A stretch of 64,000 nucleotides of DNA from Cyanophyceae cyanobacterium (GTDB lineage Bacteria; Cyanobacteriota; Cyanobacteriia; Cyanobacteriales; JBHJGN01). This document shows, piece after piece, positions 2,460 through 31,265 of this stretch. The DNA lies in contig JBHJGN010000064.1 of NCBI GenBank assembly GCA_050331735.1, forward strand, positions 1 through 64,000, written 5' to 3'. Both the position numbers and the translations under genes were made by a program. The notes beneath the pieces are model-generated. The model worked only from the letters and a program-made list of their open reading frames with translations, ran no database searches and was not told where the DNA came from. Position 1 is the stretch's first letter, and the number at the start of each line of letters is the position of its first letter.

Positions 2460-2493
2460 TCCTCACAACATCCTCATAGTTGTGCTCTATCTT
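2460..2493 (+). promoter_or_regulatory. Direct-repeat operator plus -10 (nifJ promoter)
   Basis: TCCTCACAACATCCTCATA at 2460-2478; TATCTT at 2488. Confidence 0.7.
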
Positions 2494-2548
2494 CAACGGT
2501 AAAGCGAGAGGCAAATCCGCTAAGAGTAGCGCTTCCTAGGACAAAACG

Positions 2549-5500
2549 ATGAATCAGAGTGCAACCATAGACGGGAACGAAGCCGTGGCTCGCGTGGCCA
2601 CCGCTCTTAATGAAGTAATTGCCCTATATCCGATTACCCCCTCTTCGCCGATGGGGGAGTGGGCAGATACCTGGTCCGCCAGCGGCAAGCCGAATCTGTG
2701 GGGAACCGTCCCCGCTGTAGTGGAAATGCAGAGCGAAGGGGGCGTAGCCGGAGCCGTTCACGGAGCCTTACAAACCGGATCGCTAACCACCACCTTTACT
2801 GCCTCTCAAGGGCTGTTGTTGATGCTCCCTAATATGTATAAAATTGCCGGAGAGCTAACGCCAACGGTATTCCACGTCGCTGCCCGCTCTCTGGCGGCTC
2901 AAGCCCTCTCTATTTTCGGCGACCACAGCGACGTGATGGCAACGCGGGCTACCGGGTTTGCGCTTCTGAGTGCGTCTTCAGTACAGGAAGCCCAGGATTT
3001 TGCCCTGATTGCCACCGCCGCTGCTTTAAAATCGCGGATTCCGTTTGTGCATTTCTGCGACGGCTTTCGCACCTCTCACGAAATTCAAAAAATTGAGCTG
3101 CTTACAGACGCACAGATGCGATCGCTGATTCCAGACGATCTGATTTTAGCTCACCGCGATCGCGCCCTCACCCCTGACCGCCCGTTTATTCGCGGCACTG
3201 CCCAAAATCCTGATGTTTACTTTCAGGCGAGGGAAACCGTCAATCCTTACTACCGCGCCTGTCCAGAGATTGTGCAAGGGGTGATGAATGACTTTGCCCA
3301 CGCCACCGGACGACAGTACCACCTCTATGAATATTGGGGCGACCCCCAGGCAGAGCGAGTGATTGTGTTGATGGGATCGGGCTGCGAGACGGTCCAGGAA
3401 ACTGTCGATGCTCTCAACCAGCAAGATGAAACAGTGGGCGTGGTGAAAGTACGCCTGTACCGTCCCTTTGACGTACAGCAGTTTGTGGCGGCTTTACCCA
3501 AAACGGTGACAAGTATTGCGGTGCTCGACCGCACCAAAGAACCGGGCAGCGCCGGAGAACCTCTGTACTTAGATGTTGTGGAAGCCCTGCTAGAAACGCG
3601 CTGGCTGACGGAGGCGGGACAATTACCGAACGTGGTGGGAGGACGTTACGGGCTGTCTTCTAAAGAATTTACTCCTGCCATGCTCCAGGGCATCTTTGAG
3701 AACTTAGTTTCCGCTAAACCCAAAAATCACTTTACCGTGGGCATTAACGACGACCTAACTCACACCAGCCTGAGCTATGATCGCCACTTTTCTGTTGAAC
3801 CCGATAGCGTTGTCCGAGCTATCTTCTACGGCTTGGGGTCAGACGGAACGGTGGGAGCCAACAAAAACTCGATTAAGATCATTGGCGAAGCGACTGACAA
3901 CTATGCTCAGGGGTACTTTGTCTACGACTCCAAAAAATCCGGATCTGTGACCGTTTCTCATCTACGCTTTGGTCCCCAGCCGATTCGCTCAGCCTACCTC
4001 ATCGAGCAAGCTAACTTTGTCGGCTGCCATCAGTGGCAGTTTCTCGCCCAACTCCCAATTCTGGATGCCATTAAACCGGGCGGCACTCTACTGCTCAATA
4101 GCCCCTTTGTTCCCGAAGAAACCTGGATGCGCCTACCGCGTCGGGTGCAGCAGCAAATTATTGACAAGCAGCTTCAGGTGTATGCGATTAACGCCTACAA
4201 AGTTGCCCGCGAGTCGGGAATGGGCGGACGCATCAACACGGTGATGCAGGTTTGCTTCTTTGCCCTCTCGAAAGTGCTTCCTCAAGCCGAAGCCATTGCC
4301 CAGATCAAAACCTTCATCCGCAAAACCTACGGCAAGAAAGGGGCAGAGATCGTCGAGATGAATCTGAATGCCGTCGATGCCACTCTCAAGAATCTCTACC
4401 AAGTTCCTGACCCCGACCACCTCGATGAATCATTACCACCTATAGATGCGCCCCCCTCTATTCCTGATACGGCTCCGAGCTTTGTGCGAGACGTGCTTGG
4501 CAGGATGATCGACCGTCGCGGAGACGAGATTCCGGTGAGTGCCCTGCCCTGCGATGGCACGTTTCCTAGCGGGACAGCTAAATGGGAGAAACGCAACATT
4601 GCTCAGGAAATTCCGGTATGGGCTCCGGATATCTGCGTTCAGTGCGGCAAGTGCGTAATGGTTTGTCCCCATAGCGTGATCCGCGCCAAGGTCTACGACT
4701 CTCAGCAATTAAAGACTGCGCCCGCGACCTTCAAGAGTACCGCTGCCAGAGATCGGGCTTGGCAGAACCTGCAATTTACCATTCAAGTCGCCGCCGAAGA
4801 CTGTACCGGATGCGGGATCTGCGTAGATGTGTGTCCTGCCAAAAATAAGTCCCAGCCGCGTCTGAAGGCAATTAATATGGAGCCGCAGTTCCCCCTGCGG
4901 AACCAGGAACGAGACAATTGGGACTTCTTCCTCTCTCTGCCCAATCCAGACCGCAGGCGCTTAAATCTGCACAAAATCAGTCACCAGCAGATGCAGGAAC
5001 CCCTGTTTGAGTTTTCAGGAGCCTGTGCTGGCTGCGGCGAGACTCCTTACGTGAAGCTGGTCAGTCAGCTATTTGGCGATCGCCTGTTAGTCGCCAACGC
5101 CACGGGCTGTTCCTCGATCTACGGCGGCAACTTACCCACCACGCCCTGGACGTTTAATGCCCAAGGACGCGGACCTGCCTGGTCGAATAGTTTGTTTGAA
5201 GACAACGCCGAATTTGGACTTGGTTTTCGCGTCTCCCTTGACCAGCACACTCAGATAGCCGCTCAACTGCTGCAATCTTTGGCCACCGAGGTCGGAGAAT
5301 CCTTAGCCACCGATATTTTGTCGGCTCAACAAACCGATGAAGCCGAAATCTGCGAACAGCGCGATCGCATTGCCCAACTCAAAGACCATCTGAACGCATT
5401 ACTACAGTCAGAGCAAGCTCCTACTCTAAAATCTTCAATCCAAAATCTAAAATCCTTAGCCGACTATCTAGTGAAAAAGAGCGTCTGGATGATTGGCGGC

Positions 5501-6127
5501 GATGGCTGGGCTTACGATATTGGATTCGGCGGACTCGACCACGTGCTCGCCAACGGGCGCAACGTCAATATTCTGGTCCTCGATACCGAAGTCTATTCCA
5601 ACACGGGCGGGCAGATGTCCAAAGCCACCCCTAGAGCCGCCGTCGCCAAGTTTGCCGCGAGCGGGAAAGCGGCGACTAAAAAAGATTTAGGACTGATGGC
5701 AATGACCTACGGCAACGTCTACGTCGCTAGTGTAGCGATGGGAGCTAAAGACGAACACACCCTGAGAGCTTTCTTAGAAGCAGAAGCGTATGACGGTCCC
5801 TCTTTAATTATTGCCTACTCCCACTGCATCGCTCACGGCATCAATATGTCCACCGCCATGCATCAACAGCAAGCGCTGGTAGATTCAGGACGCTGGCTGC
5901 TCTATCGTTACGATCCGAGGCGCACAGCCCAAGGCGAAAACCCTCTGATCTTAGATAGTCGCTCGCCTAAGCTGCCTGTAGACCAGTCGATGTATGCCGA
6001 GAACCGCTTCCGGATGCTGATGCGCAGCCAACCCGCAGTAGCGAAGCAGTTAGTAGAAGCAGCCCAGCAGGATGTGAATATCCGGTGGCAGCTTTATCAG
6101 GACTTGGCCAAGCGTGTTGATGGTTGA
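2549..6127 (+). CDS. nifJ: Pyruvate:ferredoxin/flavodoxin oxidoreductase
   Basis: YPITPSS, MQSEGG, two 4Fe-4S motifs (CVQCGKC, CTGCGIC), ACAGCGE, GGDGWAYDIG TPP motif; 1192 aa. Confidence 0.98.
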   Translation: MNQSATIDGNEAVARVATALNEVIALYPITPSSPMGEWADTWSASGKPNLWGTVPAVVEMQSEGGVAGAVHGALQTGSLTTTFTASQGLLLMLPNMYKIAGELTPTVFHVAARSLAAQALSIFGDHSDVMATRATGFALLSASSVQEAQDFALIATAAALKSRIPFVHFCDGFRTSHEIQKIELLTDAQMRSLIPDDLILAHRDRALTPDRPFIRGTAQNPDVYFQARETVNPYYRACPEIVQGVMNDFAHATGRQYHLYEYWGDPQAERVIVLMGSGCETVQETVDALNQQDETVGVVKVRLYRPFDVQQFVAALPKTVTSIAVLDRTKEPGSAGEPLYLDVVEALLETRWLTEAGQLPNVVGGRYGLSSKEFTPAMLQGIFENLVSAKPKNHFTVGINDDLTHTSLSYDRHFSVEPDSVVRAIFYGLGSDGTVGANKNSIKIIGEATDNYAQGYFVYDSKKSGSVTVSHLRFGPQPIRSAYLIEQANFVGCHQWQFLAQLPILDAIKPGGTLLLNSPFVPEETWMRLPRRVQQQIIDKQLQVYAINAYKVARESGMGGRINTVMQVCFFALSKVLPQAEAIAQIKTFIRKTYGKKGAEIVEMNLNAVDATLKNLYQVPDPDHLDESLPPIDAPPSIPDTAPSFVRDVLGRMIDRRGDEIPVSALPCDGTFPSGTAKWEKRNIAQEIPVWAPDICVQCGKCVMVCPHSVIRAKVYDSQQLKTAPATFKSTAARDRAWQNLQFTIQVAAEDCTGCGICVDVCPAKNKSQPRLKAINMEPQFPLRNQERDNWDFFLSLPNPDRRRLNLHKISHQQMQEPLFEFSGACAGCGETPYVKLVSQLFGDRLLVANATGCSSIYGGNLPTTPWTFNAQGRGPAWSNSLFEDNAEFGLGFRVSLDQHTQIAAQLLQSLATEVGESLATDILSAQQTDEAEICEQRDRIAQLKDHLNALLQSEQAPTLKSSIQNLKSLADYLVKKSVWMIGGDGWAYDIGFGGLDHVLANGRNVNILVLDTEVYSNTGGQMSKATPRAAVAKFAASGKAATKKDLGLMAMTYGNVYVASVAMGAKDEHTLRAFLEAEAYDGPSLIIAYSHCIAHGINMSTAMHQQQALVDSGRWLLYRYDPRRTAQGENPLILDSRSPKLPVDQSMYAENRFRMLMRSQPAVAKQLVEAAQQDVNIRWQLYQDLAKRVDG

Positions 6128-6176
6128 TGGTTAACGGCTGATTGAAATGGCTTCCATCAACCATTAACTACCAACG
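6116..6176. repeat. Inverted heptamer (STRR-like) tract at nifJ 3' end
   Basis: GTTGATG-GTTGATG-GTTAACG facing CATCAAC-CATTAAC-TACCAAC; could fold as a hairpin. Confidence 0.6.
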
Positions 6177-6204
6177 AAATACAAATCAAACAGGAGAAAA
6201 GCAA

Positions 6205-7116
6205 ATGAAGTGGAAGCAGACAAAACTGATCATTTTGGCGTTACTAGCGGCTCTCTTTATTCTGGGTTTGGAGTCGGGCATCGCTGTGGCGAGCAATGGC
6301 AAGGTGAGAGATGTGGTCAGAATTGGGTCGGATGTTGCCGTGACTGAAGAGCAAGTACTCACAGATGCGGTAGCGATTGGTGGCTCGGTGACGGTGTTAG
6401 AAGGAGGACGAGTGACAAGAGATGCTACCGCAGTCGGGGGAGATGTCATTCTCGAACCCAACGCTCAGGTTGACGGCAATGCCACTGCCATTGGAGGAGA
6501 AATTATAAAGTCAGCAGGAGCAAGCGTCAGCGGCGATGAAGTCGAAATTTGGAGCGAGGCCCGAGTTGTCATTGAGCGTCTGGGGCTGTTTGGTACTCTC
6601 TATTTAGGCAGCGTCGTCTTCAACGTGATCTCAATTTTGGTAGCGATCGCCTTTGGCGTGTTTCTGCTGCTGTTGCTCCCCGGACACCTGCGCACCATTG
6701 CCGCCACCATTAGCCAGCATCCGTTTAAGAGCGCCATGTGGGGACTCGGTGCGATTGTAGCTGTCACTTTATTCATGGCGCTAGTTGGCGGCAGTGTCCT
6801 CGGCTTTCTGCTGATTCCGGTGGTCAACCTCGCGTTTGCTGTGGCGGGATTGCTCGGCTGTGTCGCTACAGGTTTATGGGTGGGTCAGCAAACGAGGCTA
6901 GTGAGAGAAGCAACAGCCATTAAACCGTTCCTGATTGGGATGGTCATTCTAGGACTGATTAGCTTCATTCCGGTTGCCGGAGGGCTAATTGTGCTGATGG
7001 TCACTCTGTTTGGCTTTGGGGCGGTGCTGCTCTCAAGAGTAGGAACTGTACCGCCAGAAAGCATCCGTAAAAAGTTCGACCGGCTCGAAGGAACTGCTCA
7101 TTCATCAGGGGCATGA
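6205..7116 (+). CDS. Membrane protein with bactofilin-like beta-helix repeats and multi-TM C-terminus
   Basis: AGGAG RBS before ATG 6205; signal/TM segment, repeated DA-A-(I/V)GG-V units, then 5-6 hydrophobic helices. Confidence 0.75.
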   Translation: MKWKQTKLIILALLAALFILGLESGIAVASNGKVRDVVRIGSDVAVTEEQVLTDAVAIGGSVTVLEGGRVTRDATAVGGDVILEPNAQVDGNATAIGGEIIKSAGASVSGDEVEIWSEARVVIERLGLFGTLYLGSVVFNVISILVAIAFGVFLLLLLPGHLRTIAATISQHPFKSAMWGLGAIVAVTLFMALVGGSVLGFLLIPVVNLAFAVAGLLGCVATGLWVGQQTRLVREATAIKPFLIGMVILGLISFIPVAGGLIVLMVTLFGFGAVLLSRVGTVPPESIRKKFDRLEGTAHSSGA

Positions 7117-7119
7117 ACA

Positions 7120-7153
7120 TCCTCACAAGTTCTTCAAATCAATCATCTACTTT
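7120..7153 (+). promoter_or_regulatory. Direct-repeat operator plus -10
   Basis: TCCTCACAAGTTCTTCAAA at 7120-7138; TACTTT at 7148. Confidence 0.7.
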
Positions 7154-7303
7154 GAAAGTGTAGGCAATTCCTCTTGTCTCCGGTTAGTGAGTGGAATCAG
7201 TTTTTATCGGTATTGAGCAACGATCAACCGCTAACCTTCAAAAACTCGACCCTCACTCACTTGTCCACCGGAAGTTATCTCCGTATCGCTAGGGACAAAA
7301 GAC

Positions 7304-8314
7304 ATGGATCTAACGACAACTTATCTAGGGCTGAAGCTGCGATCGCCTTTAGTCGTCGGAGCCGCCGCCCCGCTCACAGAAAATCTAGACAACCTCAAGC
7401 GCCTGGAAGACGCTGGCGCAGCAGCGGTGGTGCTACATTCCCTATTTGAAGAACAGCTTCGCTGGGAGCGCACCGAACTGCACCATCAGACAACGGTTCA
7501 CAACGAAAGCTTTCCCGAAGCCCTGACCTACTTTCCCGAACCCGCTATTTTTCATGTGGGTTCAGAAGAATACCTCGACCACATTCGACGAGCAAAGGAG
7601 ATGGTCAACATTCCCATTATTGCGAGTCTAAATGGCTCTACCCTGGGCGGCTGGACGGACTACTCTCGGCAAATTGAACAGGCAGGAGCCGATGCCCTCG
7701 AACTTAATATTTATGCCGTCCCCACAGAGCTATCTATGACTGGAGCTGAAGTCGAGCAGAACTATTTAGACATCGTTCGTGCCGTGACCTCAGCGGTCGA
7801 TCTGCCCGTCGCGATTAAGCTCAGTCCGTATTTCAGCAACCTAGCCTATATGGCAAAACGTTTAGCGGACGATGGGGCCGATGCGCTTGTGCTGTTTAAC
7901 CGTTTTTATCAGCCAGATATCAATCTCGAAACCCTGGAAGTACAGCCCAATGTGCTGCTCAGTACCCCGCACGATCTGCGCCTGCCCCTACGCTGGATTG
8001 CTATTTTGTATCGCACGATTCCGGTAGATTTAGCCGCAACGAGCGGCATTCATACCGCCCAGGATGTGCTGAAGATGCTGATGGTGGGAGCAAACGCGAC
8101 TCTCTTGGTGAGCGTCCTGCTGCGCCACGGCATTGAGCACCTGCACAAAATCGAACGGGATTTGCGGCAGTGGATGAGCGAACACGAGTACGAATCTGTG
8201 ACTCAGCTTCAGGGCAGCATGAGTCAGGTTAATTGCCCTGACCCCAGTGCCTTTGAACGGGTGCAGTATATGAAGGCCATTCAAACTTACCGTCCTTTAG
8301 CCGTGAGTAAATAG
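7304..8314 (+). CDS. Dihydroorotate dehydrogenase-like FMN protein (PFOR-associated type)
   Basis: MDLTTTYLGLKLRSP N-terminus, SLFEEQ, ADALELN, KLSPYF, LFNRFYQPD, ATSGIH. Confidence 0.9.
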   Translation: MDLTTTYLGLKLRSPLVVGAAAPLTENLDNLKRLEDAGAAAVVLHSLFEEQLRWERTELHHQTTVHNESFPEALTYFPEPAIFHVGSEEYLDHIRRAKEMVNIPIIASLNGSTLGGWTDYSRQIEQAGADALELNIYAVPTELSMTGAEVEQNYLDIVRAVTSAVDLPVAIKLSPYFSNLAYMAKRLADDGADALVLFNRFYQPDINLETLEVQPNVLLSTPHDLRLPLRWIAILYRTIPVDLAATSGIHTAQDVLKMLMVGANATLLVSVLLRHGIEHLHKIERDLRQWMSEHEYESVTQLQGSMSQVNCPDPSAFERVQYMKAIQTYRPLAVSK

Positions 8315-8315
8315 A

Positions 8316-8360
8316 TGTCCCTGCGGGACGGGGAAGGGGGAAAGGGGAAGGGGGAAAGGA
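8316..8360. repeat. GTCCC-N3-GGGAC mini-palindrome plus GGGGAAA heptamer tract
   Basis: TGTCCCTGCGGGACGGGGAAGGGGGAAAGGGGAAG; same unit at 33454, 51874, 51904, 51941. Confidence 0.75.
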
Positions 8361-8476
8361 GGTTCTGCTCGGTCGTCATCGTGTTCAACAGAGCAATTAG
8401 CGATTTGTTTTGACATTTCAGAGCTAAAGAAAGGCTAAAAGCTATTTTTTACCTATTCAACATTGCTAGAAGTTCG

Positions 8477-9631
8477 ATGAAGAAGAAACGGATTGGGATT
8501 CTGACGAGTGGTGGGGATTGTCCGGGTCTAAATGCAATCATTCGGGCTGTGGTTAAATGTGCTAGCCGCCAGGGAGATGAGGTGTATGGTATTCCTTACG
8601 GGACGGATGGCTTTATCCGACTTCATCAGAAAAGTTGCCAAGCTGAGGCATTGAAGTTGAAAGAGCACGGCTACGACATTCCTGGTCTGCTGCACGGCAT
8701 TGATATTTTACAGTTTCTCAGCGGCAGTATTTTGGGAGCCTTGAGTCGAGGCAATCCAGGAGAGCCGGCGATCGCTCAGAATATTTTGCAGGGCTATCAA
8801 GATTTACAGCTAGAGGCTCTGATTGCAGCGGGCGGCGATGGCAGCTTAGATATTATCTCCGATCTGGCTCAGCAGGGGCAGTGGAACTGGATCGCTATTC
8901 CCAAAACGATCGATAATGATATTCCCTTCACAGAGCGTTCGGTGGGCTTTGATACGGCGGTGGATACCGTTACTGAGGCTCTATACGATCTGACCTTTAC
9001 TGCCGCCAGCCACGATCGCGTGATGGTCGTGCAGGTGATGGGACGAGATGCGGGTCATTTAGCGCTCCACTCGGGGATTGCTGGAGGAGCCGACGTGATT
9101 TTGATTCCTGAACTCACTTCCACCCTGACACCCGCATTGCTCGACCGGGTATGCTGGCAGCTTGCTCATCTTCGTCAGGAAGGACGTAAATTTGCCCTAA
9201 TTGTCATTGCTGAAGGAGTCAGGAATGCAGTGGGGGAGAAGGAAAAATATATTGCCGACTATTTAGCTCAGCAGATTCGAGAACACAGTCAACAGCTTTG
9301 CGCTACGGGCAAGCAGCCTTTGTGCGAGCTTCAGGACATCGAAACCCGCGCGACGATCCTCGGACACATTCAGCGCAGCGGCACTCCTTCCTCCTACGAT
9401 CGCTTGTTAGCTGCTGCTTTCGGCAAAAAAGCGGTCGATCTGGTCACTCAGGAAAAGTATCACCAACTGGTCGTTTGGCAAAACGGCGAAGTCAAGAGTC
9501 AGCCCCTAGAGCAGGTCGTTCCTCATCTAAAGCAGTGTCATCACCAAGGACGCTGCCCGAGTCCCGTTAATCCTCACGGTCTGATGGTGCAAACCGCACG
9601 ATCTTTAGGGATTTATTTAGGAGAATCATGA
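8477..9631 (+). CDS. pfkA: 6-phosphofructokinase (family A)
   Basis: [38 protein letters not shown]. Confidence 0.93.
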
Positions 9632-10743
9632 AGTTTATCGACGAGTACCGCGATGCTCACCTCGCGCACCAGTATGCCCAGGCGATCGCTCGCCTGACAA
9701 CGCGACCCTGGACAATGATGGAGATTTGCGGCGGTCAAACTCACTCTATTGTTAAGTATGGCGTGAACGAGCTGCTTCCTTCCCAAGTCACACTGATTCA
9801 CGGTCCCGGCTGTCCGGTGTGCGTCACGGCTCCCGAACTGATCGAGCAGGCGATCGCTCTGGCTGGGTTACCGGAGGTGATGCTGTGTTCCTTTGGCGAT
9901 ATGCTGAGGGTTCCGGCCCACCACCAAGGCAGCGCTCCTCAAAACCTCCTGGCAGCAAAAGCAGCGGGGAGTGATGTCCGCCTCGTCTATTCTCCCCTCG
10001 ATGCCCTCAAGCTGGCTCAGGAGAATCCTGACAAGCAGGTAGTTTTTTTTGCAGTCGGGTTTGAAACCACGGCTCCCACAACCGCTATGGTGGTGTATCA
10101 AGCAGCTCAACAGCAGATTGAGAACTTCTCGCTACTCGTGGCTCACGTCCGGGTTCCCCCAGCGATGCAGGCTATCCTTTCATCCTCCCAGAATCAGGTG
10201 CAGGGATTTCTAGCAGCGGGGCATGTCTGCACCGTCATGGGCTATACCGAGTACGAGGCGATCGCTAAAAACTATCGCGTTCCCATTGTTGTCACCGGTT
10301 TTGAACCCATCGATATCCTTCAGGGAATCTATCTCTGCATTGGGCAGCTAGAGTCAGGAACAGCGACGGTTGAAAACCAGTACGCTCGCTCTGTCCGTCG
10401 TCATGGCAATGAAGTCGCCCAGCAGCTTATGGGCGAAATCTTTGAAGTGGTGTCTCGTCCGTGGCGCGGAATCGGAGAAATTCCTCAGAGTGGATTGGGG
10501 CTGCGGAGTCGGTATGCTCGCTTCGATGCCCAAAAGCGCTTTCGGCTGTTTCCCTCTCTCCCCAAGGAGTCGCCAGAATGTATCAGCGGACTGATTCTCC
10601 AAGGAGTCAAAAAACCGCCCCAGTGCCCAGCCTTTGGCAAGCACTGTACTCCCGAACATCCTTTAGGGGCTCCAATGGTTTCTTCAGAAGGCGCTTGTGC
10701 TGCCTACCATCGGTATCGAACGCTTTCTTCTGAATCTGCTTAA
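9628..10743 (+). CDS. hypD: Hydrogenase maturation protein HypD
   Basis: [35 protein letters not shown] overlap with pfkA stop. Confidence 0.97.
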
Positions 10744-10898
10744 CTAGTCACGCTTGAATATGGCATAGCTTTAGTTAGTGGTTAGTCATTAATTGTTACC
10801 AATGAAGAGAGTTTCCTCCTAACCACCAACCCCTAACTCCTAAGTATTCAACTTCAACTCACCCTTTAACCACCTGTAGTTTTACATTAAAGTCAACG

Positions 10899-11078
10899 AT
10901 GTCAACAAACGAAGTCACCCAAATTGCCACTCAACTACTTGCCGGAATGCTTGCTAATCCCCATATCTATGCCAGTATCAGCGATGAGATGGGCAGAGGC
11001 AGACAAGAGCAGGAATTGATTACCATTGCTATCGAAATGGCTCAAAGTTTGATCGAGAAAAGTCCCAAAACTGAGTAA
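10899..11078 (+). CDS. 59-aa hypothetical protein (below ORF-track cutoff)
   Basis: MSTNEVTQIATQLLAGMLANPHIYASISDEMGRGRQEQELITIAIEMAQSLIEKSPKTE; co-oriented between hypD and the GFA gene, protein-like composition. Confidence 0.7.
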   Translation: MSTNEVTQIATQLLAGMLANPHIYASISDEMGRGRQEQELITIAIEMAQSLIEKSPKTE

Positions 11079-11112
11079 ATTTATAGGAACTCTATCTTAA
11101 GGAGCAAGCAAT

Positions 11113-11526
11113 ATGTTGAGTGTTGTCAACGGTAGCTGCTTGTGCGGGGCAGTTAGCCTGTCTACATCCAGCCTGAATCGTCACGTCGCCGCGTGTCACT
11201 GTAATATGTGCCGTAAGTGGGGTGGAGGTGCGTTGCTAGCCGCTGAGTGTGGTAGTGATGTTAGTTTCTCTGGTGAAGAAAATATTGGGGTATATCCATC
11301 TTCAGACTGGGCGGAACGAGGATTTTGTCAACGATGTGGGAGTCATCTGTTTTACAGATTGAAACAAAATAGCCAGTACTACATCCCAGTAGGACTTTTT
11401 GACAATAGCGAAGGTCTTGTGTTGAGGCATCAGGTATTTATCGATGAAAAACCAGAGTATTACGCTTTTGCCAACGAAACGAAGAACATGACAGGAGCAG
11501 AGGTGTTTGCACAGTTTGAGGCTTGA
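11113..11526 (+). CDS. GFA/CENP-V family Zn-binding protein
   Basis: GSCLCGAV, CHCNMCRK, RGFCQRCGS; AAGGAG RBS. Confidence 0.92.
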   Translation: MLSVVNGSCLCGAVSLSTSSLNRHVAACHCNMCRKWGGGALLAAECGSDVSFSGEENIGVYPSSDWAERGFCQRCGSHLFYRLKQNSQYYIPVGLFDNSEGLVLRHQVFIDEKPEYYAFANETKNMTGAEVFAQFEA

Positions 11527-11678
11527 AAGGGCGGTAGTAAATGGGGGACGACTAGGACAATACCTTGTTCGACGTCAATCGGCGTTGCTTTTTGAGTTTT
11601 AGCAGCGGGTTCAAGCGTTAGTTTGAGGCGGCTGGTACTTTAGTAATGAGAGTAACAAGACTGATTTGAAGAGCAGTT

Positions 11679-12710
11679 ATGGCGTTTCAGCTTGCTTGTC
11701 CAATTTCTCTCCAGCAATATCCCCACATCTTGATGGCCCACGGTGGCGGGGGCAGGTTAATGCAGCAGTTAATCCAGATGTTTTTGACGGCTTTTGGCAC
11801 AGCGGAGACGATTCAGCACGATGCGGCTACTCTTCAGCTTACTGGTAATAAAATCGCCTTAACCACCGATTCTTACGTGGTGCAGCCGCTGTTTTTTCCC
11901 GGTGGCGATATTGGTTCCCTAGCTGTTAACGGCACCGTCAACGATTTAGCAATGGCGGGGGCGCGTCCGCTGTATCTTACCGCCGGGTTCATTCTCGAAG
12001 AAGGGTTGTCGATAGAGACTCTTTGGCACGTTGTGCAATCGATGCAGCAGGCAGCCCAACAGGCGCAAGTCCAAATTGTTACCGGAGATACTAAGGTTGT
12101 CGAGCGCGGCAAGGGGGACGGAATTTTTATCAATACGGCTGGGGTGGGCATCATTGAGCATTCACAGGTCATCGCCCCCCAGTCAGTTCAGCCAGGAGAT
12201 GCGGTAATTGTCAATGGCGATTTAGGTCGTCACGGCATCGCTGTTATGGCACACAGAGAAGGACTAGAGTTAGAAACAACGATTGCCAGTGATACCGCAC
12301 CGCTATCCGAATTAATATCAGAACTCGTGGCGGCAGGAGTGATCCTTCACTGTCTGCGGGACTTGACGCGGGGAGGACTGGCCAGTGCTCTTAATGAAAT
12401 TGCTCAAGCGGCGCAAGTTGCTATTGCCATTGAGGAAAGCTTAATTCCGGTACAGGAAGATGTGCAGGGGGTCTGTGAAATTTTGGGGCTTGACCCGCTT
12501 TATGTTGCCAATGAAGGTCGCTGTGTAGCATTTGTTCCCGAGAAAGATACTCACAAAGCACTGGCAATGATGAAACTTTATTTTCCTGATGCTCGAATTA
12601 TTGGAAGCGTGACTAATAAAACCAGCTCTTTAGTTTCTCTGGAAAGTAAAATTGGCGTTCAACGTGTTTTGGATATGTTAAGTGGAGAGCAGTTACCGAG
12701 AATCTGCTAG
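11679..12710 (+). CDS. hypE: Hydrogenase maturation protein HypE
   Basis: [32 protein letters not shown]-terminal PRIC. Confidence 0.97.
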
Positions 12711-12839: not shown

Positions 12840-12873
12840 GGGGTAGAGCAACAAGTTGAGGAACTGGTGAAGC
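12840..12873 (-). promoter_or_regulatory. Degenerate copy of the direct-repeat operator, pointing toward the hypE 3' end
   Basis: Minus strand GCTTCACCAGTTCCTCAAC; TC-TACCCC at the conserved +28 position (poor -10). Confidence 0.45.
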
Positions 12874-12927
12874 TATGCGCAGACCGGTCTTTCCTTGGGT
12901 TAGCCCTCCTCCATGAATATTGGCTTA

Positions 12928-13069
12928 TACCATTTACCGAAAGTAGTCAGATAGTTCCTTAAACTAACCAAGCATTGGAGGTTCAAGGGCAAAGAGCTGC
13001 TGTGCTTCCCTTTCCCCCTTCCCCTTTCCCCCAACTCATCAAGTCTCCTATTACTTTTTCTAATTGGTA
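12928..13069. mobile_element. MITE family A, copy 2
   Basis: TTA-TACCATTTACCGAAAGTAG...TTACTTTTTCTAATTGGTA-TTA. Confidence 0.85.
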
Positions 13070-13262
13070 TTAGGTAGGCGGCTCATTACGGATACGCCGA
13101 ACGAAATCTACCTCAATTAACTGAGAAGCAAATCTCTGCTAGTTAGCGGTTCTTGTTGTTTTCTCGCAAATTCAGTAAAAGATAAAAAATCAAAAGAATT
13201 CATCAAGATTGGGAGTAAATTAAAGCAATACTAAACGTTAAAAAAATGCTGCTGTAGAAGAT

Positions 13263-13331
13263 ATTGTATTTCGAGAATGTGAATATCTTGTGAAGAAAGT
13301 AAATAATAGAAATGTGAATGTCTTGTGAAAT
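13263..13331 (-). promoter_or_regulatory. Tandem direct-repeat operators plus -10 with no large downstream gene
   Basis: Minus strand ATTTCACAAGACATTCACA (13331-13313) and TCTTCACAAGATATTCACA (13296-13278); TACAAT at 13268-13263. Confidence 0.6.
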
Positions 13332-13820
13332 AGAGGTAAATAACTGGTAAAGATTTGAGGAGAAAGCAGCAGCAGAGCCATATGGCTATTATCGAAAGAA
13401 ATTTGTAAAACATCGCTGCTTTAACTTGTACTGTTAATCTTTGTAAAAAGGTGTTCTCAAAAACATTGGATTTTGTCTCTTGCACTGTAAGCTAAAACTT
13501 AATCGTTGTTTTGTTGTTTAAAAAGCTGTTTTGACAGTCCGTTAGTTTTAATTCTAAAAATCTCGAAATGTAAAAAACTAGACAATATGAGTATGAGGTT
13601 GTCAGCTTGTTTACTTTTAAAAGCTGTGGCTTAGCTTAATTGTAATTTAGACAGAAAACGCTTATATTCTCCGGCGCTAAACTGTATTTTTTGCGCTTTA
13701 TTTTCTAACGCTTTGCTTCTGTTTTCGATAATTCTTTTGGTTAGCAAAAAAACAGCATTTCACATATTAATCGCCATCAGATTAAACCCGTTTTTGAAAC
13801 GATTTTTTGGGAACTATAAA

Positions 13821-18028: not shown

Positions 18029-18429
18029 GTTTCTTTCGCCGATACGCAAACGTGAGCCACTGAATCTAAAAATAATTTCTACTGACAAACAAACCCTTAT
18101 CTAACAAAGTTTATCTGAACTAACTGGAGAACCGACATCTCCTATCTATCTATAGCGGTTTATAGAACTCCAATTACCTCTAGTAGTATATCAGTATTTA
18201 TGCTTACGCTACTGGCAGAAAGGAAATCATTGGCAGCGCTGCCGACAGTCGCAGCAATTGGGCACGTTTTTCGCCAATGAAACCGACTACTCTACTAGAA
18301 TTTTCAGAAAGATATCTGATGCTTTTTTGAACAACATTGCTTGCTTAAGACGACAGTAACAAGATTTATTCCGAGCAAGATAACTGTTATTAAAACTACA
18401 ATTTTATACTTTTACTAATCCTTAAGTTA

Positions 18430-18564
18430 TACCATTTACCGAAAGTAGTCAGATAGTTCCTTAAACTCACCAAACATTGGAGGTTCAAGGGCAAAGAGCT
18501 GCTGTGCTTCCCTTTCCCCTTTGCCCCAACTCATCAAGTCTCCGATTACTTTTTCTAATTGGTA
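18430..18564. mobile_element. MITE family A, copy 3
   Basis: Nearly identical to 12928-13069, one heptamer shorter; TTA flanks. Confidence 0.85.
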
Positions 18565-18652
18565 TTAAGCAAAGACTTATCACAAATGCTTGAATTTAAA
18601 AAAACTAAGATGTTTAATTTCTATAGAGTCTTTAAGCTATCTCTAATTGATC

Positions 18653-20939: not shown

Positions 20940-20942
20940 TGA

Positions 20943-23491: not shown

Positions 23492-23525
23492 TTACTTAAG
23501 GTCACACATTAAGGAGGCGAGGAAA

Positions 23526-24279: not shown

Positions 24280-24419
24280 CTTACTATCGCCCTGCCTTGA
24301 ATTAGCACCCTGCGGTTTCTCCCGTAGTATACTGGCAAGCTAATCTAGAGACTACTCCTTGCGTTTGGCAACAAAGAGCCAAGAACTCGGTAGAAACAAG
24401 GTATCGCGATCCCCTGTTG

Positions 24420-24863
24420 CTATTCGTGGTCTAGATAATCTTCTGCTGATTCTGGATTCAATTCCCAACGGCGGCGATCGCGTCGCCCTACCTTAGAATA
24501 AGTATGAATGTATTCTCCGTCGAGCGCATCAACTCCTACAGAATGAAGCAGATCCTCGGTTACATTTTGGTCAGGAGTCGGATTTTGACCGCCAACAGCT
24601 TCTTCGCCAACGGCTTCTGCTTGATACTCATTGTCATCCAAATCTCCTCCAGTGACATCCCCTCCAGCTCTTTTAGCATTCCTGAGATGTTCTAGCACTC
24701 TGCCCATCCCCGTGTTGCGATCAATTAAGCCTTCACTCATCAAATTGGCGTTGATCTCTTCTTCGGTGAGTTCAGAATCCTCCCACAGCACGTATTCCAA
24801 AGGCACGTCTTCCCCTGGAGAGGGTCTAAAGTCGTCAGCGTCTTGGTAGCTAGAATTAAGCAT
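24420..24863 (-). CDS. DUF6335-like acidic protein
   Basis: TGGDLD..AVGEEAVGGQNPTPDQN..RRDRRRWELNPESAED; GGAGG RBS. Confidence 0.75.
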   Translation of the reverse strand: MLNSSYQDADDFRPSPGEDVPLEYVLWEDSELTEEEINANLMSEGLIDRNTGMGRVLEHLRNAKRAGGDVTGGDLDDNEYQAEAVGEEAVGGQNPTPDQNVTEDLLHSVGVDALDGEYIHTYSKVGRRDRRRWELNPESAEDYLDHE

Positions 24864-25008
24864 TAGTCCTCCAAAAGACCCAGAACGCGCTTGATGACAA
24901 TGAAGGGTCTTTATCTACTTAAATTCTAGCAATAACGCCATTGCTCTCGATGGCGACCAGAATCTTTTTAACCTCGCTTCCGACTGGCAACAGATTGTTT
25001 TCCTAACT

Positions 25009-25044
25009 ACGTTATGGGAAAGCAATTTGAGGAACTTGTAAGGA
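25009..25044 (-). promoter_or_regulatory. Direct-repeat operator upstream of the DUF6335-like gene
   Basis: Minus strand TCCTTACAAGTTCCTCAAA (25044-25026); TAACGT at +30. Confidence 0.55.
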
Positions 25045-25290
25045 TTTCCCGGAGCATGGTTCCCTTTACTATAGAGCAACCAGAATGCAGTTTCCGTGAC
25101 TGGTAACATAAAAATGGAATACAGACGGCATAGCCAGGTTTGAAGGACAATTTTCTCCAAAGTGTGCCATAACAGAAGCGGAGTTTTTTTGCAGCTAACG
25201 CTGATGGGAACTCTGAGTCGCTTTTGCTGACAGTGTTCAATCCTAGTCGTTGAATTGCCGAAAGTTATTCAAAAAGATATTACCAATAGT

Positions 25291-26094: not shown

Positions 26095-26172
26095 CTTTTT
26101 ACTTCTAATGATGTTTACTAGGTTGCCAGCGCACTCTATACTATTTAGCATAACAGAACAAGCTAGCTACTA

Positions 26173-26967: not shown

Positions 26968-27073
26968 GGGGGAGATCAAAGATATAGCCACTAAGCTTGT
27001 AGTTGAGATTCTAATAACGTACCCGTGACAAGCTTAAGCTGATTTGCATCCTGCTTATTAGACAGAATCAGCT

Positions 27074-27107
27074 TCTTCACAAGATCTTCAACTTTTGTGT
27101 CTAATTT
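27074..27107 (+). promoter_or_regulatory. Direct-repeat operator plus -10
   Basis: TCTTCACAAGATCTTCAAC at 27074-27092; TAATTT at 27102. Confidence 0.7.
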
Positions 27108-27184
27108 TAAAACAGGCTAGGTTTTGAAACGGCGGTTTCGTTACTGTTCTAGATAGCGCCGTTTGAAGTCAGAGGAGTATTTTC

Positions 27185-27370
27185 ATGCCTCGTTGCCCGT
27201 GTTGCCAGACAGTTTTGCTGCGTCATATTCGGCGCCATCGAATTTACTGGGGCTGTCTAGGCTATCGAGAGGAGATGCCCTCTCTTCGGCCTCAACTCAC
27301 CATTGACACAGCTCCTCAACGGCCAGAGAATCTACTAAGCTTTAGATTAAAGCTCAAAGTAGCGGTTTAG
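27185..27370 (+). CDS. Small Cys-rich (Zn-ribbon-like) cyanobacterial protein
   Basis: MPRCPCC..LLRHIR..YWGCLGYREEMP; GAGGAG RBS. Confidence 0.7.
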   Translation: MPRCPCCQTVLLRHIRRHRIYWGCLGYREEMPSLRPQLTIDTAPQRPENLLSFRLKLKVAV

Positions 27371-27397
27371 TCAATCGACGGTGATTCGTCAACAGCT

Positions 27398-29431
27398 ATG
27401 AATGCACCAGGGAAAGACCCTTTCATTGATGATTCATCAGCTCAAGAATTTTTTTTGGTTTGTGGGTTGGGTAGTTTGGGTCAACATTGCGTAATGACTC
27501 TCAAAAATTTTGGAGTCCGAGTCATTGCTATTGAGCTAACACCGCCTCAATCTTGGGAAATTCCCGACCTCGACGAGCGATTAGAAGAAATTATTTGGGG
27601 CGACTGCCGTCAAGATCGGATTTTAAAACAGGCGGGAGTCGCCACGTGTCGCGCCGCACTTTTAGTAACTAGTAACGAACAGGTCAATATTGAGACGGCT
27701 TTAGCCGTGCGCCAGCTTAGCTTTCGCACTCGCCTAGTAGTCCGCTCCGGCCAAGAAAAACTGAATCAACTGTTAAGTCAGCAGCTCGGTAATTTTATTG
27801 CCTACGAACCAACTCAGCTAACATCAGCCGCTTTTGCTTTGGCGGCTTTGGGAACTGAAACTCTGGGTTCTTTTAAGCTGGCCGGAAAACGCTGGCAAGT
27901 TCTTGAACTAACTGTCAAGCGTCATCACCACTGGTGCGTATCTCGACCACTCCACGACCTCAATAGCCATCGGCGACTCATCTTAGCTCACGCGCGTCAG
28001 AGCTTTCACTCACCCCAGTCTTTTTACCAGTGGGAACCGGACGATATTGTATCGCCAGGAGACACTTTAGTATATCTTGAAACTACCGAACAGGACGGAC
28101 ATGGATTTGGAGCAGCGCGAGCGGCTCCCTTTTGTTCCCCGACTCGACCGGTTCGAGCTCCATTCCGCCTTGATTGGGAACGCTTCAAAAATCAAGCTAG
28201 TCGATTCTGGCAAGATTTCCATCAACCAGTGCGGCGATTAGCTCTCATTTGCAGCGTTATTGTGCTCTCGCTATTGCTCATCGGGACTTTCCTGTTCCAC
28301 TGGTATTATTCGCAATTTACTGTTGTGTCTGCTTTTTTAGTCGCTGCGATTCTTCTGTTGGGGGGATACGCCGATTTATTTGGAGGACTTGAGCAGATAG
28401 CCTCGATTCCCTGGTGGCTGAAGCTACTCAGTTTTAGTCTGACGGTCGCAGGGACGATATTCGTTGGAGTGTTGTACGCTCTGCTAATAGAAGCCTTGCT
28501 CGCCTCTCGATTTCAATTTGCGCCGCCTCGCCCACCAATTCCACAGCTCAATCATGTCGTCATTGTTGGTCTCGGTCGTGTTGGTCAACAGGTAGCGGCT
28601 TTATTGCAAGAATTTAAGCAGCCATTTGTTGGCATTCCAATTAACTCTGGCCCAGATGGGTCTACTCTCCCGCAAATGCCGCTCATCGAAGGGAACTTGA
28701 CCGAGACTCTCCCCAAAGCAAATTTAGCAACAGCTAAAAGCATTGTTGTTGTCACCAATGATGAGATTCAGAATTTAGAAGTGGCTCTACTGGCACGGGC
28801 TATCAATCCTCACCTTGCTGTCGTCATTCGGACTTTAAGCACTCGTTTAGCGGAACATCTCAGCGGTCTCTTCCCGCGAGCGCAAGGAATTGGAACCTAC
28901 GCAGTAGCCGCCGAAGCATTTGCAGCGGCGGCTTTTGGAGAGAACATTCGTAATTTGTTTCGTCTGCATAGCCGCACAATTTTAGTCACGGAGTATCAAA
29001 TTGAGGCTGCCGATACCCTCACGGGTCTTTTGCTAGGCGAAGTCGCTTACGGCTACGGTGTCGTTCCGATACTCTATCAAAGACCTTCTCAGGCTTCTAT
29101 TCTAATGCCCTCAGACGAGATTCGATTAGAAGCAAGCGATCGCCTCGTCGTTTTAGCCACAATCGATGGACTGCGACGCATCGAGACCGGTCAGTTAAAT
29201 CAACAATCCAAGGGCTGGCGAGTTCATATTGAAACAGCATTAACCTCGGAAGGAGTTTTTGAAGGAGGAAATTTACTCGTCCGCTTCACAGGATGCCGAC
29301 TCAGTACTGCTAGAAACTTGATGAATAATCTCCCGCAAACGTTACCCGTTCCTTTATACAAACTCCAAGCCCAAAAACTCGTCAAAGAGCTAAGTAAAGC
29401 TTTAGTGAAGGCTCGTATCCTCAATTCTTGA
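27398..29431 (+). CDS. TrkA-N/RCK-domain potassium channel family protein
   Basis: Two Rossmann motifs (VCGLGSLG, IVGLGRVG) flanking a TM region with LLGGYAD. Confidence 0.85.
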   Translation: MNAPGKDPFIDDSSAQEFFLVCGLGSLGQHCVMTLKNFGVRVIAIELTPPQSWEIPDLDERLEEIIWGDCRQDRILKQAGVATCRAALLVTSNEQVNIETALAVRQLSFRTRLVVRSGQEKLNQLLSQQLGNFIAYEPTQLTSAAFALAALGTETLGSFKLAGKRWQVLELTVKRHHHWCVSRPLHDLNSHRRLILAHARQSFHSPQSFYQWEPDDIVSPGDTLVYLETTEQDGHGFGAARAAPFCSPTRPVRAPFRLDWERFKNQASRFWQDFHQPVRRLALICSVIVLSLLLIGTFLFHWYYSQFTVVSAFLVAAILLLGGYADLFGGLEQIASIPWWLKLLSFSLTVAGTIFVGVLYALLIEALLASRFQFAPPRPPIPQLNHVVIVGLGRVGQQVAALLQEFKQPFVGIPINSGPDGSTLPQMPLIEGNLTETLPKANLATAKSIVVVTNDEIQNLEVALLARAINPHLAVVIRTLSTRLAEHLSGLFPRAQGIGTYAVAAEAFAAAAFGENIRNLFRLHSRTILVTEYQIEAADTLTGLLLGEVAYGYGVVPILYQRPSQASILMPSDEIRLEASDRLVVLATIDGLRRIETGQLNQQSKGWRVHIETALTSEGVFEGGNLLVRFTGCRLSTARNLMNNLPQTLPVPLYKLQAQKLVKELSKALVKARILNS

Positions 29432-29449
29432 CACTGCCACTAACAACGA

Positions 29450-31000
29450 CTAGCCACTCGCGATCAGTTCCGGTTGTTGCCGAATTGATTCTCCCGTCAA
29501 TAATTCTGCTACATCCATGCCGTTACCGATCACTCCAGGAACGCTCGGATAGCCAGCACTCGCCCCCACTAAGTAGAGATTTGGTAATTCGGTGCGATAC
29601 CCAAGACGATTCAGGCCAATCTGTTGGGGAATCAGATTGGCACCGTAGATATTTCCGAGGGGCTGTCCGAGGTAATATTCGCTTGTTGTTGGAGTGCCAA
29701 AGACTTTCATCCGAATATAACTATCGATATCAGGAACTAACTCTCTAACGCTCGTCACGATCCGCTGATAGGTGGCTCGTTTTCTGGCTTTATAGGCTGT
29801 TAAGTCGGTTTCGCGCAGCTCTTTGAACGGTTTGTAGGGGCAGACGGTGGCAATTTCTAAAACGTGATGTCCGGCTGGTGCCATTCCGGGTTCGCGGGAT
29901 TTGAGAGTCGGACAGGACAAAAAGAACCAAGGGCGTTCTAAATTGCCTTGAAGCTGCTGTTGATAGGATTGATTCAGATCGCCGTTTGGATAGTACCACA
30001 CGTTCCAGTTGCCGATGCCGTAGCGCTGCGGTTCAAACCGAGAGTCTAAACCGAGATAGATATTGAACGCACTCGCCGAGTATTCGTAGTTTGTCAGGCG
30101 GCGATACTCCTGCCGGCTTAAGGCCAGGGAATTGTGCATCAATTGAACGGTCAATTTGGGATCGAGGTCGCTGATGTAGCCAATGTCGGCTTGATAGGTT
30201 TCTCCTCCAGCCGTGACGCTGTTCACCTGATGATTGTCTACATCAATGTGCTGCACGGGGGTGGAGTAGTAAACGTCACCCCCGCCAGCGGTAATGGCAG
30301 AGACTACGGTATCAACGAGGTGTTTGAAATGATACTGAGGATAGTACGCCCCTTCCGAGTAATCCCAAACCAAAGAGGCATGAGTAATCAAAGAGATTTC
30401 TGCTGGCGGCAATCCATAATCCCCACTCTGACCTGCCAAGAGAGCCTGCAGTTTGGAGGAGAGTCCAGCGCGATTGTAGAGATCTTGTAGCGTCCAGTTG
30501 CGTCGGGTAAATAGGTGCCAATACTTAGGCAACAATAGCCAGTCAGACCAGTGGACATCGAACCAGCGGACCTCGCTGCTGAGCTTTTGGATCTCTTGAT
30601 GGAGTTGCTTAATTTCGTCGCAGTAAAGGTTGATGGCCCGTGCTTCTGTTGGAAAAGTGGTCAGCAGGCGATCGCGGAATTTCTCCCAGTTCATCGGAAT
30701 GCGAAAATCAACCTCTGGAGTAATCACCCGGTCGATGCAGTCGGGGTCGAGGGAATTAAAGGGAACCTGTCGTTGAATATAGTCGAGAAATTGCTGTACC
30801 GCCTGTCCCTCGCCGCACTGATAAATATAGTGAACGTCGGCACAGAAGCGATAGTCGCCATAGTCAAACGTATGACAACAGCCCCCCGGTAGGTAATGCT
30901 GTTCTAGAACAGCCACCTGATATCCCCGACGAGTTAAACAGGCAGCGGCGGATAATCCGCCCAAGCCTGCTCCTAAAATAATATAATCATAGCTTTTCAT
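29450..31000 (-). CDS. Phytoene desaturase (CrtI)-like FAD-dependent oxidoreductase
   Basis: ILGAGLGGL, LEQH..PGG, GNIYG, NLYLVGA; AGGAG RBS. Confidence 0.85.
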   Translation of the reverse strand: MKSYDYIILGAGLGGLSAAACLTRRGYQVAVLEQHYLPGGCCHTFDYGDYRFCADVHYIYQCGEGQAVQQFLDYIQRQVPFNSLDPDCIDRVITPEVDFRIPMNWEKFRDRLLTTFPTEARAINLYCDEIKQLHQEIQKLSSEVRWFDVHWSDWLLLPKYWHLFTRRNWTLQDLYNRAGLSSKLQALLAGQSGDYGLPPAEISLITHASLVWDYSEGAYYPQYHFKHLVDTVVSAITAGGGDVYYSTPVQHIDVDNHQVNSVTAGGETYQADIGYISDLDPKLTVQLMHNSLALSRQEYRRLTNYEYSASAFNIYLGLDSRFEPQRYGIGNWNVWYYPNGDLNQSYQQQLQGNLERPWFFLSCPTLKSREPGMAPAGHHVLEIATVCPYKPFKELRETDLTAYKARKRATYQRIVTSVRELVPDIDSYIRMKVFGTPTTSEYYLGQPLGNIYGANLIPQQIGLNRLGYRTELPNLYLVGASAGYPSVPGVIGNGMDVAELLTGESIRQQPELIASG

Positions 31001-31231
31001 CGTGTTCTCCTGTAGTGATGGAATACAGCCGCCGATTCCGATTGAAGGCTAGGCTGATTCAGCGATATCGCTGGTTCGAGGGGGTTGTGCTTGTGCTCGC
31101 TCCCAAGAAGCCCACTAATACGCATCCATGCTGCTTGTCGAGGCTCAGAGACTCCTGCTAAACTACGGTCCAGCTAAGCTCTTCAGTCAGTGGTTCTCAC
31201 AAATAGTCTATGCTTCTGTCTATGCTTCTCT

Positions 31232-31265
31232 AGCGTAGACAAACATTTTGAGGAACCTGTGAAGA
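31232..31265 (-). promoter_or_regulatory. Direct-repeat operator plus -10
   Basis: Minus strand TCTTCACAGGTTCCTCAAA (31265-31247); TACGCT at 31237-31232. Confidence 0.7.

Follow-up and report, generated by a model that had tools for sequence, protein, structure and literature searches.

The DNA analysed here, a window of 64,000 nucleotides (contig JBHJGN010000064.1 of the Cyanophyceae assembly GCA_050331735.1; contig C64 of genome G000), carries recurrent copies of a 19-mer operator followed by a −10 hexamer that starts at position +28 (hereafter, the box). The box is an operator beyond reasonable doubt, and its architecture argues strongly for a predicted binding site of an OmpR-type activator. 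Boxes precede unlinked genes for fermentation, hydrogenase synthesis and stress survival, both in this genome and in its relatives. We consider it likely that a single OmpR/PhoB-family regulator reads the box and switches on a fermentation regulon. Its class is known, but the regulon itself is undescribed, and the fusion of sensor and regulator is unusual.

All eight 19-mers listed in the initial annotation of the window were recovered at the same positions and on the same strands, and a TANNNT hexamer begins at +28 in the five copies named there, preceded by TC in four of them. Its description of each copy as a pair of TCYTCA half-sites was too strict, as the exact form TCYTCA-N5-TCYTCA occurs in only four of the eight. 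A position weight matrix built from the eight sites gave 26 matches of at least 21 bits in the 5.57-Mb genome and none in either of two order-5 Markov genomes of equal size, far above the level of simulated DNA. The fixed spacing also held beyond the contig: 17 of 19 outside matches had TANNNT at +28, and each of the other offsets from +20 to +37 was used at most twice. The refined consensus is TCCTCAC-AAGT-TCCTCAA with an 11-bp period, followed by a T-rich stretch and a −10 box 10 nt downstream. A second, 34-nt model was trained on 76 sites of other genomes, partly found with a pattern demanding TA at +28, for which reason that position is not independent in this model. TCCTCA stood at offsets 0 and 11 in both matrices, that is, as a tandem direct repeat separated by one helical turn. 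Seven of the eight window sites scored 20.9 to 38.4 bits in the 34-nt model, and 20 shuffles of the window gave no match at 14 bits. Genome-wide, the model found 34 sites (10 on C9, 7 on C64, 6 on C39, 4 on C15, 3 on C32, 2 on C5 and two singletons), 33 of them outside open reading frames (ORFs) of at least 120 amino acids despite a coding fraction of 0.81, and 32 co-oriented with the downstream gene. Among relatives' sites lacking the core of the search pattern, TA was present at +28 in 13 of 16.

The absence of a consensus −35 and the invariant 10-nt gap argue for activation rather than repression. Given its rigid spacing to the −10, the box could alternatively be the promoter of an alternative sigma factor, with an extended −35, and a sigma-70-family gene does lie in the box-bearing island of plasmid pREB4 of Acaryochloris marina. 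We regard this as very unlikely, since two half-site copies lie one turn apart, the second being in the −35/−10 spacer and equally conserved, the −10 is an ordinary TANNNT, and the distribution follows a winged-helix protein. Some OmpR proteins do act as repressors from the −35 region that the box covers (RpaB at HLR1 is an example, PMC13421787), and the sites are clustered on six contigs. However, the flanks of most copies are unrelated to each other and target classes are kept across families, making a repressor site, or the relic of a repeated or mobile element, most improbable.

Box-led genes in this genome include an N-ATPase operon behind an Hsp20 gene, hoxW-hypA-hypB, CBS-hoxH, hoxU-hoxY, a universal stress protein (USP) gene with hoxE-hoxF, hypF-hypC, ldh-ppsA, nifJ, pfkA and hypD, as well as genes for other USPs, CBS proteins, Lon, FtsH, Hsp20s, a haem peroxidase, cytochrome c-like proteins and several small ORFs. 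In relatives, the box stands ahead of nifJ, USP-hoxEF, hoxU, hoxW, ppsA, pflA-adhE-pflB and P-type ATPase genes. A 50-aa ORF ahead of atpD had no match in Pfam or NCBIfam. None of the annotated targets is a phycobiliprotein or bilin-synthesis gene. The proposal that one OmpR/PhoB-type activator site is common to unlinked fermentation genes is thus borne out as a prediction by 34 sites, by its recurrence in many genomes and by a co-occurring regulator.

In the window, the nifJ gene (pyruvate:ferredoxin (flavodoxin) oxidoreductase, TIGR02176; 2549..6127, + strand) follows a box at 2460-2478 with −10 TATCTT at 2488-2493 (2460..2493, +; 31.6 bits; predicted start at about 2500), and nifJ genes of relatives are also preceded by boxes. 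A second box (7120-7138, −10 TACTTT at 7148-7153; 7120..7153, +; 34.3 bits) is a predicted internal promoter for the block 7304..12710 (+), which begins with a dihydroorotate dehydrogenase-like gene (7304-8314), pfkA (8477-9631) and hypD (9628-10743); a GFA-family gene (11113-11526) and hypE (11679-12710) are putative parts of the same transcript. The strongest window site (27074-27092, −10 TAATTT at 27102-27107; 27074..27107, +; 38.4 bits) precedes a 61-aa Cys-rich ORF (27185-27370) and a TrkA-N channel gene (27398-29431). On the − strand, a box at 31247-31265 with −10 TACGCT at 31232-31237 (31232..31265; 35.2 bits) lies upstream of a CrtI-like FAD oxidoreductase gene (29450-31000), and a box at 25026-25044 with CATAAC at +28 (25011..25044; 30.3 bits) lies upstream of a DUF6335 gene (24420-24863). 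The remaining three copies are also on the − strand. The box at 12855-12873 (12840..12873; weak −10 TACCCC; 23.7 bits) and the degenerate copy at 13278-13296 (13263..13296; TACAAT at +28; 20.9 bits) both point towards hypE from its 3′ side, and neither has a gene in its own orientation behind it. The latter lies within an array of 11-bp-spaced TTCACA/TTTACC half-sites, and its membership in the set is doubtful. The copy at 13313..13331 consists of TTCACA-N5-TTCACA only, scored below 10 bits in the cross-genome model and was rejected as a member, so that the original eight-copy set stands at seven, one of them questionable.

Some genome-wide sites extend the list of possible targets. A gene for a glutamine synthetase inactivating factor (IF7/IF17-like; C9:41442-41954, L002 8442-8954) lies directly behind a strong box, which would tie the regulon to nitrogen assimilation, and two tandem RoxA-like cytochrome c proteins (C39:47676-50678, L003 5677-8679) are likewise encoded behind a strong box. 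At C56:33315, the degenerate site TTTTCACAACTTTTTCACA with TAGGCT at +28 stands ahead of two small genes that have homologues behind strong boxes in related genomes; it is probably a weak member of the regulon. The 61-aa Cys-rich ORF of the window has a paralog at C9:38331-38454 (L002 5318-5515), also behind a box, and belongs to no Pfam family.

The candidate regulator was found by its recognition helix. Hybrid regulators with a REC-wHTH-Hpt-REC layout beside sites in genomes G006, G170 and G074 and on pREB4 share the helix GEEAVRTHIKGLR (pattern EEAVRTHIKG(L/V)R, or AVRTHIKG), and of the 19 Trans_reg_C proteins in this genome only C39:66747-68567, a REC-wHTH-Hpt-REC(-REC) protein, carries it. 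Its REC-wHTH part scored above the NCBIfam RppA cut-off (283.6 vs 250), and its clade is sister to a ManR-like branch (support 91/87). A four-row regulator profile was run over 145 genomes, comprising the order-level genomes of a 401-genome cyanobacterial set and twelve of other orders. An E-value cut misplaced G119 and G288, which have the same helix, and G106, which has another, so the helix pattern was used instead; this definition is post hoc, and a few negatives may hide the helix, since inspection was limited to the top-scoring locus or loci of each genome. On this basis, at least two sites were present in 32 of 39 helix-positive genomes and in 4 of 106 others, and in 28 of 35 helix-positive genomes once the four training genomes were excluded. 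In a control on 73 of the genomes using hoxH, at least two sites were found in 15/15 genomes with both hox and regulator, 2/30 with hox only, 5/8 with the regulator only and 0/20 with neither, which indicates that the box follows the regulator and not the hydrogenase. Physical linkage was also evident: a site lay within about 1.5 kb of the helix at 13 of 35 non-training loci and at 1 of 33 paralog loci. These sites mostly face away from the regulator, suggesting linkage more than autoregulation. A block of regulator, 130-aa ORF, site and CBS-PAS kinase is kept between this genome and G119, a member of another family. As no strong site was found within 400 nt of any of the 19 OmpR-domain genes (best score 16.4, on the opposite strand), the candidate rests on co-occurrence and linkage. 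On these grounds, it is likely that the AVRTHIKG regulator at C39:66747 is the predicted reader of the box.

The proteins C39:77423, C38:14969, C71:27029 and C69:2909 were rejected as readers; they have other helices, and members of their clades are common in site-less genomes, although these were not each searched separately. A different reader, either another OmpR paralog or a conserved factor, with the AVRTHIKG regulator merely travelling with the island, nonetheless deserves mention because C39:77423 is a second hybrid regulator in the same island, a paralog of that type adjoins a site in G411, and four genomes (G121, G210, G367 and G377; drafts of 60-250 contigs) have two to four good sites, in G121 and G210 at hox and pfl promoters, with no detectable AVRTHIKG regulator. 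These genomes count against the proposed pairing, as do the 7 of 39 helix-bearing genomes with fewer than two strict sites (none in G148, G249, G351 and G355). Nevertheless, no other clade member tracks the sites, pREB4 combines its sites with one AVRTHIKG regulator, and the genus g38, in which the regulator is found in 0/9 genomes, has site counts of 0-4, as expected for decay after loss. We therefore consider a different reader unlikely; regulator loss followed by decay is a plausible account of sites without a regulator. In G121 and G210 (L221, L222, L223), near-perfect boxes persist at the hox and pfl operons although no cognate regulator was found, which may reflect decay of the regulon or another reader.

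The pairing of box and AVRTHIKG regulator extends well beyond this genome. The exact pattern, including TA at +28, matched in 54 of the 401 cyanobacterial genomes, with two or more matches in 36; the reversed pattern gave single matches in 15 genomes and never two, and single matches were therefore treated as chance. Positive genomes occur in several families, most densely in family f7 (37/46), but kin genomes are not independent samples, and the concentration of most positives in one family weakens the distribution as evidence. Nostoc parmelioides has 20 box matches at up to one mismatch. On pREB4, 15 sites lie in the hox/N-ATPase island, with none in 50 kb of backbone and none in 10 shuffles. 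The 39.9-kb N-ATPase region of pAQ7 in Synechococcus PCC 7002 has no site. The pfl/adhE cluster on C6 of the present genome also lacks a site, although relatives have one, a further point against the proposed regulon.

In N. parmelioides, the gene for the fused regulator is succeeded by one for a single receiver and then by tamB, which lies on the opposite strand. The same order is reported for alr2428-alr2429 and all2430 of Nostoc PCC 7120 (PMC12267927), so that Alr2428 is the probable orthologue in PCC 7120 by synteny. In the literature found, alr2428 is mentioned but uncharacterised (PMC12267927).

From these patterns we infer binding, activation and a trigger as follows. A head-to-tail winged-helix dimer of an OmpR/PhoB-family activator would bind the two TCCTCA half-sites at about −40 to −23, stand in for the missing −35 and recruit a sigma-70-type RNA polymerase to the TANNNT −10, 10 nt on, thereby switching on a regulon for fermentation and low-energy survival. 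The reader would be the phosphorelay-driven REC-wHTH-Hpt-REC(-REC) protein at C39:66747-68567 (Alr2428 by synteny). In most Nostoc-like relatives a putative heme-PAS kinase is fused to the regulator, so oxygen or another heme ligand would probably gate it there. In this genome, input would instead come from a Ser/Thr-kinase-GAF hybrid and a PAS hybrid just upstream and from a CBS-PAS-GAF kinase next door.

The regulator of relatives is often fused to PAS-HisKA-HATPase-REC. When the PAS beside the kinase core was compared with the PDB, FixL scored best (E 7.5e-20), and both the proximal His and the distal Arg aligned. The top fold matches of a structural model of this PAS (pLDDT 79) were the heme domains of DosP and FixL. 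Among 24 regulator loci, a heme-type PAS is fused in 15 and lies in an adjacent kinase in 2, with the His in 17/17 and the Arg in 14/17. The domain thus has a PAS fold like that of FixL and DosP, with heme and O2 binding predicted. Similar PAS domains also occur in site-less genomes, and the PAS alone is therefore not specific. Moreover, no FixL-type heme PAS was found in the present genome by blastp or tblastn (best profile score 39.6 bits, a generic PAS) or in G017, G290, G062 and G249 at E 1e-30, and the pREB4 regulator, which carries a GGDEF tail, lacks a heme PAS as well. Upstream of the gene at C39:66747 are those for a REC-PAS-PAS kinase and a Ser/Thr-kinase-type GAF hybrid kinase; it also adjoins the gene for the CBS-PAS-GAF kinase, whose PAS domains gave weak or no PDB matches. 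In a genome without a heme PAS, where other kinases would provide the input, the signal is more likely to be energy or redox state. Oxygen is a plausible trigger for the heme-fused form of the regulator and a less plausible one for this genome.

Published transcript data bear on both promoter and trigger. The start of hoxW in PCC 7120 was mapped at −70, with a −10 TAGCTT and no −35, and a conserved element was described at −162 to −195 (PMC2670836). A search for this promoter led to five further named Nostocales records, of which one, that of N. parmelioides, was syntenic. There, the same element occupies −163 to −195 and a box comes after it; the +28 hexamer of this box begins at −84, which puts the predicted start at about −72. 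The mapped start agrees with this prediction, although the comparison uses the N. parmelioides promoter in place of PCC 7120's own. One hour after CO2 was lowered from 3% to 0.04% in the light, PCC 7120 transcripts had fallen 42.4-fold for nifJ, 73.9-fold for the hox clusters and 107.4-fold for ppsA, a drop that the authors ascribed tentatively to LexA/cyAbrB (PMC7699953), and hox also clusters with nifJ in expression (PMC4915528). These data support co-regulation of nifJ, hox and ppsA. The effect, however, followed a CO2 step-down in the light and not anoxia. In Acaryochloris (PMC5295598, rows AM1_D014x-D023x of Table S3), seven genes first downstream of pREB4 sites appear in the differential table; in microoxic light five were lower (atpD −2.15, D0169 −1.77, hoxW −2.43, D0206 −1.58 and USP D0214 −1.41), one was higher (D0238 +1.31) and one was unchanged, while hoxE also rose (+1.97). 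Most of these genes also fell under hyperoxia. For two genes, the table gives transcript starts 13 and 18 nt further downstream than predicted, data too coarse to test the prediction (PMC5295598). The PCC 7120 shift and the two Acaryochloris gas treatments thus lend no support to a plain low-oxygen trigger.

These observations fit an explanation in which operator and regulator are the same and the signal is carbon/pH or energy status, in CO2-rich, acidic or ATP-poor cells, the regulon serving proton and energy housekeeping (an H+-consuming hydrogenase, N-ATPase, Na+/H+ antiporter, K+ channel and cation ATPases). The 40- to 100-fold fall within 1 h of the CO2 shift and the decrease of pREB4 site genes in both gas-exchanged treatments agree with it, as do the lack of a heme PAS in this genome and the CBS-domain kinases that neighbour nifJ/ppsA in five relatives and the regulator in both this genome and G119. 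On the other hand, a FixL-like PAS with the proximal His is present in 17 of 24 relatives, and cultures differing in CO2 can differ in O2 too. The targets also include PFOR (nifJ), PFL (pfl) and Hox, which are oxygen-labile enzymes. A carbon or energy signal is therefore possible, if on the doubtful side. The suggestion of a dark or anoxic trigger keeps its basis in the FixL-like heme PAS of relatives and loses it in a genome without the domain and in the expression data above; a plain low-oxygen trigger is unproven. A wider reading, which we hold tentatively but as a serious possibility, is that, in many filamentous and other cyanobacteria, a single giant Alr2428-type protein (FixL-like heme oxygen sensor, histidine kinase, Hpt and OmpR DNA-binding domain) may be an undescribed master switch of fermentation and H2 production that governs a dormancy-like regulon through the box, that evolution may have retained its output module and exchanged the sensor from lineage to lineage (Nostoc-like genomes having the heme PAS and this genome hybrids of the CBS/PAS or Ser/Thr-kinase type), and that regulon and regulator may move together on plasmids such as pREB4.

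Comparison with known systems places the proposed OmpR-type operator in a familiar class. Consensus strings for HLR1, ChlR, LexA and the H box were taken from papers, and those for CopR, NrsR, ManR, Pho, the L box and NtcA from general background. The pho box of E. coli is a 7+4+7 direct repeat with an 11-bp period that ends 10 nt before the −10, without a −35; the present box has the same geometry, and the candidate, like PhoB, has a Trans_reg_C domain. However, all 34 sites had at least three mismatches to the cyanobacterial Pho consensus, the SphR orthologue here is another gene, on C49, and the box targets fermentation and not phosphate. The ManR, CopR and NrsR/RppA boxes of Synechocystis are 11-bp-period repeats with a TCA core and half-sites of the TTCAT/TTTCA type. 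All 34 sites had at least three mismatches to ManR and CopR and at least five to NrsR, with none within one mismatch; the candidate also differs in its recognition helix and lacks metal-transport targets. RcaC, which acts in chromatic acclimation in Fremyella, has a REC-wHTH-Hpt-REC layout and recognises the L box, TTGCACA-N4-TTGCACA. The candidate shares this layout, but regulators of its type are in many cases joined to a kinase of their own that bears a heme-type PAS; every one of the 34 sites had at least four mismatches to the L box, and phycobiliprotein targets are absent. In Mycobacterium, the two-component system DosR/DevR governs genes for USPs, CBS proteins and small heat-shock proteins together with a phosphofructokinase and a P-type ATPase, and is thus alike in regulon content by analogy; DosR, a NarL/LuxR-type protein with a palindromic site and GAF-heme sensors, is not homologous to the candidate system. 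FixL/FixJ and DosP share with the relatives' domain the PAS fold, the proximal His, the distal Arg and the place directly before the kinase core, but the relatives' PAS belongs to the same polypeptide as an Hpt relay and a DNA-binding domain of the OmpR type, and is absent from this genome.

RcaC resembles the candidate in belonging to the OmpR class and in taking its input from a kinase together with a small receiver protein (PMC5737509, PMC13079394). Among published elements, the H box of Nostoc flagelliforme comes closest in form. It is read by the OmpR-type factor Hrr1 at paired 11-nt direct repeats whose AGGAA core also occurs in the reverse strand of our box; that system is induced in the dark on rehydration, targets sigB1, cpeR1 and wspA, and is found mostly in Nostoc (PMC13079394). 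Hrr1 was compared through its operator and description, and the H box (AGGAATTTACM repeat) had 7-12 mismatches in 22 nt at all 34 sites, among them the CAC positions that vary least. RpaB sites (HLR1, KTTACAWW-N2-KTTACAWW; PMC13421787) had 4-7 mismatches at all 34. In Synechocystis and Synechococcus, LexA, CyAbrB1/2, SigE, RpaA and ChlR act on the same target genes (PMC13421787) through different motifs, with at least two mismatches for LexA and three for ChlR at all 34 sites, and the box is missing at the two-site level in 28 of the 30 hox-bearing genomes without the regulator. The mismatch counts, some against strings from general background, uphold the initial annotation's view that the box is not HLR1, Pho or NtcA, and they also set it apart from the ManR, CopR and NrsR boxes, which the annotation named as the closest known relatives. 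For hox/nifJ, the excerpt of a 2026 review names CyAbrB1/2, SigE and RpaA and contains no regulator of the present type (PMC13421787). No matching motif occurs in the excerpts of PMC5737509, PMC2674450, PMC4183373 and PMC4463661; none of the matches listed for the box string in the literature was cyanobacterial by title, and the motif strings were not found in Nodularia supplementary data. Overall, no description of the box was found in the literature, with subscription papers, RegPrecise and several supplements lying outside the search.

Other features of the window deserve brief mention. A PAS-GAF-PAS histidine kinase gene cut by the contig start (3..1946, − strand) is divergent from nifJ and encodes no FixL-type heme PAS; it is a possible input to the system. 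Its part at 3-849 shares 85% identity with a kinase truncated where C32 ends (39396-40235), a contig that carries hypF-hypC plus three boxes, and 67% identity with the kinase upstream of the candidate regulator; these are recent paralogs, and the two contigs are possibly neighbours. A dispersed repeat of about 150 bp, resembling a miniature inverted-repeat transposable element and with about 140 BLAST matches in the genome, occurs at 2125-2280, 12925-13075, 18427-18567 and 33489-33599, the first two copies being upstream of nifJ and downstream of hypE. The array at 13278-13375 comprises about eight half-sites at 11-bp spacing (TCCTCA, TTTACC and TTCACA) and lies 340-430 nt upstream of a glycosyltransferase gene at 13713; TTCACA-N5-TTCACA occurs in four copies genome-wide, and the array may be a multi-dimer site of another OmpR protein. 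Further downstream (39589-46482), two tandem GAF-domain methyl-accepting chemotaxis proteins in a cheY-cheW-MCP-cheA cluster share an identical internal stretch, so that one 19-mer context recurs at 40872 and 44436.

The way in which cyanobacteria induce hydrogenase, PFOR and PFL has been a long-standing gap, and the regulators named so far (LexA, CyAbrB, SigE and RpaA) are general factors from unicellular models. The present analysis defines the operator precisely and predicts its regulon for dozens of genomes; it also points to a candidate gene, alr2428, in a genetically tractable model and to a candidate ligand-binding residue. If the proposed system is correct, the box would offer a strong inducible promoter element for the engineering of cyanobacterial H2 production, and oxygenic phototrophs would possess a fused oxygen-sensor transcription factor that could act as a testable master switch of fermentation and hydrogen metabolism.

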